This document shows, piece after piece, positions 15,658-49,157 of a DNA stretch of 64,000 bases; positions within the stretch are counted from its first letter, which is position 1, and every line of letters begins with the position of its first letter. Source of the stretch: Dictyostelium discoideum (lineage: Eukaryota); the NCBI GenBank assembly GCA_000004695.1, contig CM000155.2, positions 224,001-288,000 on the forward strand, read 5' to 3'. Position numbers and translations under genes: made by a program. Below the pieces are notes generated by a model. That model saw only the letters and a program-made list of their open reading frames with translations, was not told where the DNA came from and made no database searches.

Positions 15658-18499
15658 ATGTTTGGTGGTCAATTTGGTTCATTCGGTGCAAAACCAGCTG
15701 CAACTGCATCACCATTCGGTGCTCCATCCGCTGCACCAACAACTTCATTGTTTGGTTCAACAGCTCCATCATCAGGTAAGTTTTTTTTTTTAAAATAAAA
15801 AATCATAAAACAAATATATAAATTAAATATTAATACAAAGTTTCAATTTCAAATAATATTATTTTAGGATTTGGAGGATTTGGATCAACAGCACAGACAA
15901 CACAACCAACAACAGGTGGATTTGGAGGATTTGGTGGATTTGGAGGAGCAACAACTACACAGCAACCAGCAGCAAGTCCATTTGGTGGTGGAGGAACAGG
16001 TGGTAGTGGATTATTTGGATCATCAGCACAAACAACAACACAGCAACCAGGTGCAAGTCCATTTGGTGGTGGATTTGGTACAACTACTACAACAACTACA
16101 CAGCAACCAGGCGCAAGTCCATTTGGCGGAACAGGTGGTGGATTATTTGGATCATCAGCACAAACAACAACACAACAACAAGGTGCAAGTCCATTTGGTG
16201 GATTTGGAGGAGCAACTACAACACAACCATCATTATTATCAGGTGCCACTGGTGGTTTTGGTGGTTTTGGTGGTTCTACAACTTCAGGTACTCAATTAGG
16301 TGGTGGTGGTGGTGCAACAAGTGGTGCATTTGGTGGTTCATCAAGTCCATTTGGTGGTAGTGGTGGTGCAACCACATCAAGTCCATTTGGTGGTGGTGGT
16401 GGTAGTTTCGGAGCAACCACTCAAAAACAATATGGAACACCAATTCCATATCAACAAACTACAATTGAAGGTAATACATTCGTTTCAATCTCTGCTATGC
16501 CACAATATAACGATAGATCATTTGAGGAATTAAGATTTGAAGATATCACTCATAGAAAGGATATAGTTTATAAGACAGGTGGTGGCAGTGGTGGTGGTAA
16601 CTCATTGTTTGGTTCAACTCCAACCACTCAACCTTCATCACCATTTGGTGCACAAACAACAACTCAAACCACTGGAGGTTTATTCGGTGGTCAAACTACT
16701 ACCTCACCATTTGGTGGTCAAACTTCAGCCACTCCAGGTTCATCATTATTTGGTTCAACACAACCAACTCAACAACAAACTAGTGGTGGTTTATTTGGTT
16801 CAGTACAACCAACCCAACAACAAGCTGGTGGTGGTTTATTCGGTTCAATGCCAAGCACAGGTGGTTCATCATTATTTGGTTCAACACAACCAACTCAACA
16901 ACAAACTGGTGGTGGTTTGTTTGGTGCAACCCAATCAAATCAACCAACCAATTCATTGTTTGGTGCATCAGCACGCATCAGCACAACCAACACAATCATT
17001 ATTTGGTGGACAAACTCAAACAACCACTTCACCATTTGGTAGTCAAACCTCCACACCATTTGGTCAACCTCAACAAACTAATACTGGAAGTGGATTATTC
17101 GGTGCTCAACAAACTCAACAAACTAATACTGGAGGTGGATTATTCGGTGCCCAACCAACTCAACAAACTAGTGGTGGTGGATTATTCGGTACTCAACCAA
17201 CCTCTGGAACTGGGTTGTTTGGTACGTCACCAACAGCAGGAGGTACAGGTTTATTTGGCACAACACAACCAACATCCCAAGGTACAGGTTTATTTGGTAC
17301 AACACAACCAACAACTCAAGGTACCGGTTTATTTGGTACATCACCAACCTCTGGTACAGGTTTATTTGGTTCAACACCAACCTCTGGTACAGGTTTATTT
17401 GGCTCAACCCCAACATCTGGTACAGGTTTATTTGGTTCAGCTCAACCACCACAAAATCAACAATCTCAAACTTCACTCTTTGGTAATACAGGTACAGGTG
17501 CAACCAACACTGGCACTGGTCTATTTGGTTCAGCTCAACCATCATCAAACCCAGGTGGTGGTTTATTTGGTTCAGCACAACCATCAACTACTACAGGTGG
17601 TCTTTTCGGATCAAACCAACCAACAGCACAACCAACAACTTCATTATTTGGAAATACCACTGGTTCAGTTGGTGGTTTGGGTGCAACACCAAACATAACC
17701 AGTGGATTATTTGGTTCAAACCCAGCACAAACTGGTGGATTATTTGGTTCAACACAACCAACCACCCAAACTTCACTCTTTGGAAATACAGGATCAACTG
17801 GTGGTTTAGGTGCACAAAATGGTGGTGGATTATTTGGTAATCTTTCACAACCAACCGCAACTGCTGGTCAAGGATTATCAGGTGGATTATTTGGTAATCT
17901 TTCACAACCTACTGCAACCGCTGGTCAAGGTTTATCAAGTGGTGGATTGTTTGGTAATACATTATTAGGTCAACCAAGTACACAGGGTTTATCAAGTGCC
18001 CTTCCAACATTGGGTTTAGGTTTAATGGGAGGTCAACCACAACAAACTCAACAACTTCCACAAGGCTCATTGATGTTACAACAAACTCAACAACCACTTC
18101 AACAACAACCACTCCAACAACAACAACAACCACTCCAACAATCAACCATCCAATTAAATAATCAAATCAATTCCGCTTCACCTTATTTCCCAATTTCATC
18201 ACCAGCACCATTTGCAACATTTGTTAAGGATTTAACATCAACTTCAAAAGTTGTTTCACCACCATCTTACACTCAAAGATCCTTATCACATCATGGTTAT
18301 ATTCCAAAATCAACCACTAAATTAGTACCAAGAAGAGGCCCAAACAATGTAGATCTAGGTTTTTCAGTTATACAAAATCAAAATGGTTTATTCCCAATTG
18401 ATAAATTTATTACTAAACATTCAAAATCTTTAAATATTAATACTACAAATGAAACTGAAGATACTTTAAGATCATTAAATACAAAGAGTTCTTCATTAT

Positions 18500-18536
<37 letters not shown>

Positions 18537-19667
18537 TAGAAATGTTAATACAAATGTTAACGATTATCAAAATAATGGATTACCATCTTCTTCACTTTAT
18601 AATAGTAATATTAATCAATTAAGTAACAACAACAATAATAATAATAATATTTATAATAATAACAATAATAATAATATTAACAACAATAATAACAATAATA
18701 ATATTTCAACTCAATTTAATTTAAGAAATAATCAATCATCATCTGATAATCTTAATAATGATAAATCTTTATCATCCTCTTCATCAAATAAATCACAACA
18801 ACAACAACAAAAAGAACAAAAAGAAGAACAACCACCAAAACCAATTAAAGAAAAAGAATTTATAAATCCAAATGCACCAAAATTAACAAGAGATGGTTAT
18901 CAATGTGTCCCATCAATTAAAGAATTATCAAAGAAAACTGATAAGGAATTATCATCAGTTCAAGGTTTTACAATTTCAAGAGATGGTTGTGGTTCAATTT
19001 ATTTCCCTGGTTCAACAAATTTGGTTGCATTAGATTTAGATGATATCGTTGATATTGAACCAAGAGAAGTATCAGTTTATAAGGATGAAGAAACTAAACC
19101 AGAGATTGGATATGGTTTGAATCGTGATGCCGTTGTTACATTGGAGAATTGTTGGCCAAAGAATAAAAATGGTGAAGTAGTTAAAGAGGATGGTACCATT
19201 TTAGATAAATATGAAAATGCCTTAAAGAAAGTTTCTGCTAAATCTGATTGTGGTTTCGTTTCTTATTCAAGATCAAATGGTACTTGGGTATTCACTGTTA
19301 AACATTTTAGTAAATATTCAGCACCAGATTTTGATGAAGATGATCAACAAATGCAACAACAAACTCAACAAAAACAACAACAAACTCAACCATCAAAAGT
19401 TACATTTCAACAACCATCAACCAAATTGACTAAACCAAAATTCACAGCAAATCTCGATAATTTTGACTCTGATTCTGAAACAAGTTCAGGTGTAAGTATT
19501 TTAGATTTTATTTAAAAAAAAAAAAATCATTATTTACATTCTTGTACTTTGTATTCTCGTTACTATAATAACAATAAAATCAACAATAGTAATAATAATA
19601 ATAATAATTTCCCCCCGCGCAGTAATATTTTCAATAAACCCCCAAAAAAAAAAAAAAAAAAAAAAAA

Positions 19668-19737
<70 letters not shown>

Positions 19738-19880
19738 TTTTATAATATAATAATTTTTAAAATTTATAAATAAACACTCTTTTTTTTTTTAAAAAAAAAA
19801 AAAAATAAACCCTTCTTTTATTTTATTTCATATTTTTTTAATTTTATTTTTTTTTAATTATTTCAAATATATTAACAAAT

Positions 19881-19922
<42 letters not shown>

Positions 19923-22409
19923 GATGAAAATCAAGATGAAATGGTTCCACAAAAGAAAACACCATTTATTAAAAGAGTATCAAATAGAGAGTCAGGATTA
20001 TTTGATACACCATCAGTTGTACCAATGTCTGAAAAAATTGAAACAACACCATCAAAGATTGCAAGAGTATCGGAACCAACATCTCAATCGAGTAGAATGA
20101 GTAACAACGCATTAAAGTTTTCAACATTTAATCCACAACAACAACAACTACAATCATCAAGATTTAAATCTACTGGTTTATCAATCCTTTCAAATCCAGT
20201 TAAAAATTTGATTCAATCAGATGTTAACAATGAACAATCAATGTTTTCCAATACCACCACTACCAGTACCACTAGAATTCAACCATTACCATCACAACAA
20301 CACTTAGTACAACCAATACCGACTACAATTTCATTAAATAAAAATTATTTTTCAAAGGTTAGAATTGATCCACAAGTTTATGATCGTATTGTACCAAAAG
20401 AAGAATCAATTACCAATCAATATAGAATGAAAAATGAACGTTTAAATCATAGTACTCAAGATGTATCATTATTTATGAGAAGATCATTTAGAGTTGGTTG
20501 GGCACCTGGTGGTAAATTAATTTCAATCACAAAGAGCTCCTTTAAGAATTTATTGATTAAAAAGTTACCAACCGATACAAAGGAGGATAAAAAAGAATCA
20601 ATCATCAAATTCTTAAAGAATCATCATTCACATAGCAGTTTAGTACCAGAGAATTTGAAATCAATTGGTTGGTTCTCAATTTCAAATGTTCAAGAACAAA
20701 TTGAATCACAATTAACCCTAAATGTTCCATCAAGTCAATCGGTTTACTATAATAGAATTTGGAGTTTAATTTCAAATCTTTGGGGTAACGTTTTAAAAGG
20801 CAATGGTAGTAAATATATAAACACCAACTACTCTGAAGATACCATTAGAAAGTTAAATCTCAATCAATGGTTAAAGGATGTCATTGCTCCATTGCTTAGA
20901 GATGAAATGGATTCTCTTAGAAAAAAGACAAATTCAAATTATCTCGAACAAATTTTCTCTTATTTATCTGCTAAACAAATTAAAGAAGCCTCTGATTTAG
21001 CAAATGAAAATAAAGATTTTAGATTGGCAACTATGATGTCTCAAATTTGGTCTTCAAGTGAATCTGGTAAAGAGTTGATTTTAAAGCAATTAACAACCTA
21101 TCATTCAAATGGTTCCGATGAATTTATAAATGAGAAAAGATTAGAAATTTTACATTTAATTGCTGGTAGTGTTAATAAGATTTATAAGAATCTAAATGAT
21201 TGGATTAGATGTTTTGCTGTTAGTTTTTGGTTTAAATATTCTTTGGAATATAGTATTGAAGATTCAGTTGAAAATTTTGAAAGATCTTTCAATGCTCATA
21301 GATCAGTTTATCCATTACCACCTTATTTAATTAAATCAACCTCCACCAATAGTAAACAAATTGAAGAACAACAACATTATTATGATATTTGTTTCTTATT
21401 ATTAAAGTTATTTGCTGTAAATCGTGGTTCATCACATTTTGATAAGTTTAAGAATATTTTTTATCCAGAGAATATTGGTCAAGATTTATTGGATTATCAT
21501 TTATCTTGGAATTTATATACCGTTTTAAAATCAATTCCATCATTAAACAAACAACCAGATCTTGTAAATGCAAGTAACCTTCATAGTTCTTTTGCTTTAC
21601 AACTTGAAAGATTAGGTCTATGGCAATGGTCAATCTATGTTTTACTTCATACTCCAGACCAATCCAATCATGTTAGAGAAGAAGCTGTCAAATCATTGAT
21701 CGCTAGAGCTGCACCAGTTATTACATCAGAAGATAGAGTGTTCCTAACTACAAAATTACATATTCCAGAGATTTGGATCGATGAAGCTAAAGCATGGTAC
21801 TCTGGTTACGATTGTAATAATGATATTTATGATCAAATCGATGCTCTCTTCAAGTCATACCAATACACAAAGATTCACGATATCATTTTCTCAAATATTG
21901 GTCCAAACTATATCATTCAAAAGAGATATCATTCACTCAAAGATTTACTCATTAGATTGGAGCCTCACTCTTCTTTTATCTCCACTTGGAGATATGGTGG
22001 TTCCATCTTTTTAGAATTTGCCGATATTTGTATTCAATACAAAGAGATACTTTCTCAACTCTCCAATACTGCAGAGGAAATTCAACGTACCAAATATTAT
22101 GTTAACCTTAAAGATATTACCACTAGAATCGTTAATATCTTATCTGATATTTCAAAAATCACTCAATCCTCTGAAATTAAAAATACTAGCGCCTCATACA
22201 AACAATCTCTTTCATTTATGTCTGAAGCTCTCATCACTAAAGCTTCTCTTTTAAGAGATCTACCTGAAAGTATTGTAAAATTGGTTTCAACAAATAATTT
22301 AGTTTCAACTTTAAATTCTTTGCCATTAACTCAAGATTATAGATCTAAAAATTTAGAATCTTTAACTGATCAAATTCAAGATACTTTATTAAATTCAATT
22401 TATCAATAA
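15658..22409 (+). CDS. nup98: Nup98-Nup96 nucleoporin precursor with GLFG/FG repeats, GLEBS motif, Nup98 autoproteolytic domain and the Nup96 part. Exons 15658..15775, 15868..19491 and 19923..22409; exon 2 as given carries a +10-bp frameshift at ~16975.
   Basis: Exon 1 reads MFGGQFGSFGAKPAA...SLFGSTAPSS|g (donor GTAAGT at 15776). Exon 2 has dozens of GLFG/SLFG/PFG repeats; a GLEBS-like RSFEELRFEDITHRKDIV (~16515) matching human SLEELRLEDYQANRKG; the autoproteolytic domain ...GTWVFTVKHFSKY with the HF|SKY cleavage site (~19300); and donor GTAAGTAT at 19492. Exon 3 begins at acceptor (T)nAG 19922 (DENQDEMVPQKKTPF...) and is 822 aa of Nup96-like alpha-solenoid. Phases check out (phase-1 and phase-0 introns). 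Confidence 0.85.
16965..16984 (+). repeat. Perfect 10-bp tandem duplication (gcatcagcac x2) inside the nup98 FG-repeat exon, shifting the frame by +1
   Basis: ...ggtgcatcagcacgcatcagcacaacc.... The GLFG frame upstream is frame 0 (from 15868, including GLEBS). Downstream, the conserved GLFG + autoprotease + Nup96 frame is frame 1. Removing one 10-bp unit restores a continuous ...FGASAQPTQSLFGGQTQ... reading frame. Confidence 0.9.
19668..19737. repeat. (AAT)n microsatellite in the nup98-96 intron
   Basis: aataataata... about 23 units at 19668-19737, preceded by a poly(A) run. Confidence 0.9.

Positions 22410-36637: not shown

Positions 36638-49157
<12,520 letters not shown>

Follow-up and report, generated by a model that had tools for sequence, protein, structure and literature searches.

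Exon 2 of the Nup98-Nup96 precursor gene of Dictyostelium discoideum, as deposited in the public genome, is broken by a +1 phase shift at a perfect 10-base-pair (bp) tandem, and this lesion is probably an error of the reference sequence, the gene of the living organism being one continuous open reading frame (ORF) of 2072 or 2075 codons. The gene has three exons, its product has been published as 'Nup220' or DdNup220, and it lies within a stretch of 64,000 nucleotides (nt) taken from assembly GCA_000004695.1 (contig CM000155.2, positions 224,001 to 288,000 of the forward strand). This whole stretch, whose guanine-plus-cytosine (GC) content is 22.8%, is hereafter called the window; positions are counted from its first nucleotide and all features described are on the + strand.

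A single +1-phase lesion at 16965-16984, either a 10-bp duplication of GCATCAGCAC or an extra C (16974) between two 9-bp in-frame repeat copies, would have entered the repetitive exon as an artefact of base calling, cloning or assembly. The public annotation passes over the lesion without a flag, the frame being restored by a predicted 67-nt GT..AG 'intron'. Both the absence of the lesion from the real genome and the choice between its two minimal forms are what we infer.

The frame break and the 10-bp tandem

The frame entering exon 2 (15868..19491, mean GC 37%) from upstream, with codon starts at 15870+3n, encodes FG repeats and the GLEBS motif as far as ...NSLFGASA, then continues as RISTTNTIIIWWTNSNNHFTIW and ends at a TAG codon (17040..17042). 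The resulting product is a truncated one of 430 amino acids (aa), the final 22 residues of which are out of frame. An open stretch of the downstream frame (codon starts at 15868+3n) extends over 16579-19515 and reads, from 16984, QPTQSLFGG..., followed by more GLFG repeats and by the autoproteolytic domain with HFSKY, i.e. about 850 further codons. An earlier reading of this DNA, made from its letters and predicted ORFs only (the sequence-only reading), had described this premature stop and the long +1 continuation, and translation confirmed both. As deposited, exon 2 is an interrupted coding sequence, shifted at 16974/16975 and then stopped at TAG 17040.

The same reading had located the switch of frame at a perfect tandem duplication, which is indeed what is found. 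Unit 1 (16965..16974) is read GCA TCA GCA C.. in the upstream frame and unit 2 (16975..16984) is read GCA TCA GCA C(AA) in the downstream frame, both being GCATCAGCAC; the direct-repeat listing gives 100% identity at a spacing of 10. The copy number is exactly two, 16964 (T) being unlike the last base of the unit and 16985 (A) unlike its first. The first upstream-frame codon past unit 1 is CGC, which is used in 0 of the 9694 codons of the long ORFs of the window, and the break is therefore placed at 16974, the junction of the two units. Between 16800 and 17150, the start-to-start spacings of the LFG motif (TTxTTTGGT) are 36, 45, 39 and then 43 nt, the last being the only one not divisible by three and the one that spans the tandem.

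The tandem is not a chance repeat. When exon 2 was simulated as a first-order Markov chain, a perfect 10-nt tandem of any kind arose in just 1.3% of the runs, and no other perfect 10-nt tandem of the 64 kb reaches 30% GC. Almost all GC-containing tandems of the window have a unit divisible by 3, lengths of 9, 12 and 15 nt being frequent. Two perfect adjacent copies in a domain rich in short repeats, absent from relatives, are what replication slippage or template switching would leave; unlike such a duplication, the present one has a 10-nt unit (the other coding tandems of the window being multiples of 3) and no microhomology at its borders. The same letters can be read equally well as a 9-bp repeat into which one base has been inserted.

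Longer perfect in-frame direct repeats occur in the FG domain, one of 45 nt (16737-16781 and 16863-16907, 126 nt apart) and one of 37 nt (16006-16042 and 16138-16174, 132 nt apart). They indicate recent internal duplications of FG units, and would break short-read assemblies just upstream of the 10-bp tandem.

Integrity of the gene and comparison with sister species

The domain content identifies the gene as that of the Nup98-Nup96 precursor. The FG/GLFG repeat domain is recognised in five stretches (Pfam Nucleoporin_FG, 7.7e-34), and 58 FG dipeptides lie within residues 1-737 of the repaired protein. A putative GLEBS motif (16485-16544) scores 24.7 bits with Pfam Nup98_GLEBS, slightly below the 27-bit cut-off, and the same stretch is labelled GLEBS in PMC4283134. 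The autoproteolytic S59 domain (18892-19320) matches the whole Pfam Nucleoporin2 profile (1.4e-44) and holds the HFS|KY cleavage motif at 19303-19317. The Nup96 part is encoded downstream in the same reading frame by exon 3 (19923..22409, to the stop codon; Pfam Nup96, 7.2e-81): the splice of intron 2 (19491|19923) preserves the frame and gives ...SSG|DENQDEMVPQKK, the D. citrinum counterpart being ...GSGDEVNQDEMVPQKK. At the other end, exon 1 (15658..15775) begins with ATG 15658 and encodes MFGGQFGSFG..., an N-terminus identical to that of the published D. discoideum Nup220 and matching that of D. citrinum. This is the organisation shared by human NUP98-NUP96, yeast Nup145 and Caenorhabditis elegans NPP-10, i.e. 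N-terminal GLFG/FG repeats broken by a GLEBS motif (putative in D. discoideum), then an S59 autopeptidase with HFS|KY and a Nup96 part fused downstream.

The best homology matches were the proteins of D. citrinum (P0001, 2031 aa) and D. dimigraforme (P0002, 2028 aa), and the orthologous DNA was taken from assemblies GCA_054859325.1 (L006) and GCA_054859025.1 (L007), respectively. Each of these two sister species has exon 2 as one unbroken ORF, of 1173 aa in D. citrinum and of 1194 aa in D. dimigraforme, whereas the deposited D. discoideum ORF shifts phase by +1 after codon 408. In the DNA alignment the stretch from GGTxCA to CAACCAAC is shorter in both sisters than in the window, by exactly one nucleotide, and neither sister has the tandem of two perfect adjacent copies. 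Once repaired, the gene can be aligned over its full length with the sister proteins, at about 86% identity to D. citrinum over some 2070 codons, and against the sisters both flanks of the break retain coding constraint, each in its own frame. Judged by these comparisons, the gene is not a decayed pseudogene and is intact outside 16965-16984.

In the nuclear pore of D. discoideum strain Ax2-214, 32 Y-complexes have been fitted with Nup96 (bioRxiv 10.1101/2024.01.17.575985). Nup96 is encoded downstream of the break and present in pores, so the cells must read through the region. As the gene is otherwise intact, the sister exon 2 unbroken, both flanks constrained and Nup96 present in pores, the break is either very recent or artefactual.

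A very recent break could be a real, strain-specific mutation, tolerated through another intact copy (e.g. an axenic-strain segmental duplication) or through a separate Nup96 transcript starting at ATG 19941; we consider this unlikely. The FG domain is prone to insertions and deletions (indels), with 34 gap events against D. citrinum and the 45-nt and 37-nt perfect internal repeats, and the long intron 2, whose donor is closely followed by an in-frame TAA and whose acceptor lies 18 nt ahead of an ATG, would suit an independent downstream transcript. D. discoideum is haploid, however, so that the only Nup98 of the cell would be the product as deposited, a fragment of 430 aa devoid of both the anchoring autopeptidase domain and Nup96. 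The window contains no second copy, and the remainder of the gene is without decay.

The ribosome could also be carried across by a programmed, Ty3-type shift into the +1 frame. At GCA CGC A, the unused CGC would occupy the A site and GCA would be read in the +1 frame, giving ...GASAASAQPT... (peptide ASAASAQPTQSLFGG), with a spacer as long as that of the orthologs. Like the yeast Ty3 site (GCG AGU U), the D. discoideum site combines a P-site codon for alanine with a very rare A-site codon and a common +1 codon, GCA being used 15.7 times per 1000 codons in the window. Unlike the Ty3 site, it is not conserved in the closest relatives, both of which are one nucleotide shorter here and show an ordinary unbroken ORF, and no stimulatory element was found; the local RNA structure predicted is not significant (z = -1.5). 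CGC probably shares its inosine tRNA with the well-used CGT, and there is no apparent reason to regulate a structural nucleoporin in this way. We know of no Ty3-like +1 frameshifting in Dictyostelium, and we regard this explanation as highly improbable. The sequence-only reading had likewise ranked a sequence or assembly error, or a strain lesion, ahead of programmed frameshifting, a ranking with which the present evidence agrees.

The 67-nt intron of the public gene model

Supplementary file 2 of Schmidt and Görlich (eLife 2015; PMC4283134) prints the FG domain of "Dictyostelium discoideum Nup220", which begins MFGGQFGSFGAKPAATASPFG..., as does the window, and reads ...STQPTQQQTGGAQPTQSLFGG... 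at the site of the break. A model rebuilt without 16915-16981 equals this printed domain: LFGNTLLG ends at residue 718, 56 FG motifs are counted and the breaks between lines of 71 residues coincide. The whole protein of this model has 2053 aa and 220.5 kDa, as published. This agreement identifies the window as D. discoideum and shows that the public model crosses the frame break by way of a 67-nt 'intron' (16915..16981), which codes GLFGATQSNQPTNSLFGAS in the upstream frame and whose removal costs 19 codons, including one GLFG and one SLFG motif.

Judging by its composition, its signals and its counterparts in related species, this intron is almost certainly spurious. It has GT at 16915-16 and AG at 16980-81 (GTTTGT...ATCAG), and differs in other respects from the two bona fide introns of the gene, i.e. 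intron 1 (15776..15867, 92 nt, 9.8% GC) and intron 2 (19492..19922, 431 nt, 10.4% GC), both of the form GTAAGT...TTTTAG. The GC content of the segment is 43%, a value reached or exceeded in just 3.4% of all 67-nt windows of the 64 kb. The donor is GTTTGT, with T at +3 and +4, and not GTAAGT. The 3' end, CGCATCAG, has no pyrimidine or A/T tract before the AG, where the real introns are T-rich.

The counterpart of the segment in D. citrinum is exon (GLFGTQTQSNQPTNSLFGAP), and its GLFG/SLFG unit is kept as exon in both D. citrinum and D. dimigraforme. Compared with D. citrinum, the 19 codons show six synonymous changes, one non-synonymous change and one in-frame indel, and this pattern is a signature of coding constraint.

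It could be argued that the laboratory strain used for sequencing does carry the lesion, as a 10-bp duplication or a 1-nt insertion, and that the segment is spliced there as a new intron ('intronization'), yielding the 2053-aa protein. In addition to the GT..AG ends, the length of the segment is 1 modulo 3 and its removal restores the frame exactly; the G at -1 and the G and T at +5 and +6 of the donor fit the U1 consensus, and the published DdNup220 sequence is that of the spliced model. We nevertheless find intronization improbable, considering the GC content far from the ~10% of the introns, the T at donor positions +3/+4, the missing tract before the AG, and the fact that the segment is coding and under purifying selection in the sister species, to whose proteins the spliced model gives the poorest fit of those compared. 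A GT..AG interval of the correct phase over a frameshift is, moreover, a typical output of automatic gene predictors. Taking the two kinds of rescue together, a lesion that is real in living cells and bypassed either by a new 67-nt intron or by +1 frameshifting at GCA-CGC-A has only a small chance of being correct.

The case resembles other indel errors masked by a predictor's 'frame-fixing' intron, in that a short coding-like GT..AG interval of length 1 modulo 3 lies exactly over the break, costs conserved residues and does not occur in orthologs. It differs from them in that it is diagnosed here by exclusion and not from raw reads. We agree with the sequence-only reading that the 10 bp are too short for an intron, the public model using the 67-nt interval instead. 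A mini-intron of 19 nt with GT..AG ends (16963-16981) was considered as well and rejected, such a length being far too short for the spliceosome here and its removal destroying an LFG motif.

Two minimal repairs of the frame

The first repair, deletion of 16975-16984, yields an uninterrupted product of 2072 aa with LFG-ASA-QPT at the junction (...LFGASAQPT...), so that the seamless frame expected from the removal of one unit is obtained. The second, deletion of C16974 only, yields 2075 aa with LFG-ASAASA-QPT (...LFGASAASAQPT...) and leaves a 9-bp in-frame repeat, in DNA form GCATCAGCAGCATCAGCAC. The proposal that the 10-bp duplication is the lesion thus stands in so far as its removal restores the frame, but it is not the sole minimal lesion. 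The three alternative junction sequences of the protein are ...NSLFGASAQPTQSLFGG..., ...NSLFGASAASAQPTQSLFGG... and ...QQQTGGAQPTQSLFGG....

Both orthologs have exactly one nucleotide fewer at the position of the single-C alternative (16974..16974), and the six-residue spacer left by the second repair has the length found in D. citrinum (APSSSG) and in D. dimigraforme (STSGST). Alignment to D. citrinum scored 8740 for the second repair, 8728 for the first and 8648 for the public model; against both orthologs, the second repair had the best score and the public model the worst. Ortholog spacing was nonetheless rejected as a means of deciding between the 10-bp and the 1-nt repair. The FG domain shows 34 indel events relative to D. 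citrinum, two of which are three-residue deficits in D. discoideum, and the spacer is made of NCA codons, among which a 9-bp repeat easily arises. A 10-bp duplication is a single event, whereas the 1-nt route demands an extra C at one exact position. We hold the 10-bp and the 1-nt lesion to be roughly equally likely.

Search for independent sequence

Exact look-ups were empty for the 181-aa upstream-frame ORF and for a predicted contig-edge fragment, as they were for 14 candidate products comprising the public model, both repairs, the downstream-frame ORF, the spliced form and the predicted products of Logan contigs. Homology searches were carried out with the whole repaired protein, with a 665-aa junction segment and with an alignment of five allele sequences, and gave no D. 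discoideum sequence across the site. These searches were apparently limited to targets of about 0.65 to 1.75 times the query length, and this limit explains why D. citrinum P0001 (2031 aa), which came first for a 1251-aa query, was missing for the 665-aa one that it contains. In a search of the representative library the sole close match was D. dimigraforme, and an exact DNA pattern with a variable gap had no match in metagenome contigs.

Closer material came from five independent Logan DNA assemblies (SRR26869257, SRR26869258, SRR26869267, SRR28564542 and SRR28564543), in which the exon-3 ORF starting at ATG 19941 (19941-22409) is identical to that of the window. These contigs run out within the intron 2 poly-T, short of the break. 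According to an analysis at k=31, the junction should lie on a contig bounded by the 45-nt internal repeat and an (AAT)10 run; the predicted products of this contig, in all four allele versions, had no exact record. In the literature we came across neither this frameshift nor a corrected gene model, and across no variant tables that include the gene.

Weighing a reference error

Probable errors of the reference sequence have precedent in this species. Resequencing of AX4-derived lines attributed 1916 of 1917 candidate differences to reference errors or to differences in the ancestor, and the reference differs from these lines at sites common to several of them (PMC3466296). Together with the intact remainder of the gene, the unbroken exon 2 of the sisters and the presence of Nup96 in pores, this leads us to favour a reference error with somewhat better than even confidence.

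Several points weigh against such an error. A perfect 10-bp tandem duplication is atypical as a Sanger base-calling error, and the single-C alternative requires that the inserted base be a C and sit precisely on the border of the 9-bp repeat. The evidence on Nup96 comes from Ax2 and not from the sequenced strain. If the DdNup220 expression construct (PMC4283134) was derived from complementary DNA (cDNA), the 67-nt splice would be real. Finally, look-ups, homology searches and Logan assemblies provided no D. discoideum read, cDNA or assembly across 16950-17000.

Consequences for the public sequence

Should the diagnosis of a reference error be right, 19 to 22 residues, with two FG motifs among them, are missing from the public D. 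discoideum Nup98-Nup96 protein. Work on phase separation of FG domains (PMC4283134) took this sequence to represent the Amoebozoa, and integrative modelling of the D. discoideum pore has drawn on it as well (bioRxiv 10.1101/2024.01.17.575985). With 56 versus 58 FG motifs, the effect on such studies is probably small. The gene would also offer a clean case of a predictor-made intron hiding a frameshift, which could be mistaken for intron gain in comparative studies. If the lesion is real after all, it would give a rare view of a haploid cell tolerating a frameshift in an essential nucleoporin. The biological novelty is otherwise low, and there is some practical value in correcting the annotation of a model organism.

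Other features of the gene and of the window

Intron 2 has an in-frame TAA (19513-15) directly after its donor, and ATG 19941 lies 18 nt past its acceptor. Within it, some 30 consecutive A and a long (TAA)n stretch are found, together with a small GC island, TTTCCCCCCGCGCAG, at ~19609-19623. A stand-alone Nup96 ORF of 822 aa is present in gene calls on Logan DNA contigs, and a separate Nup96 transcript may start from ATG 19941.

Elsewhere in the window, eight of the nine ATG-started ORFs of at least 250 aa are without an exact protein on record. The window further contains an uninterrupted ORF of 4078 codons on the + strand at 36921-49157.

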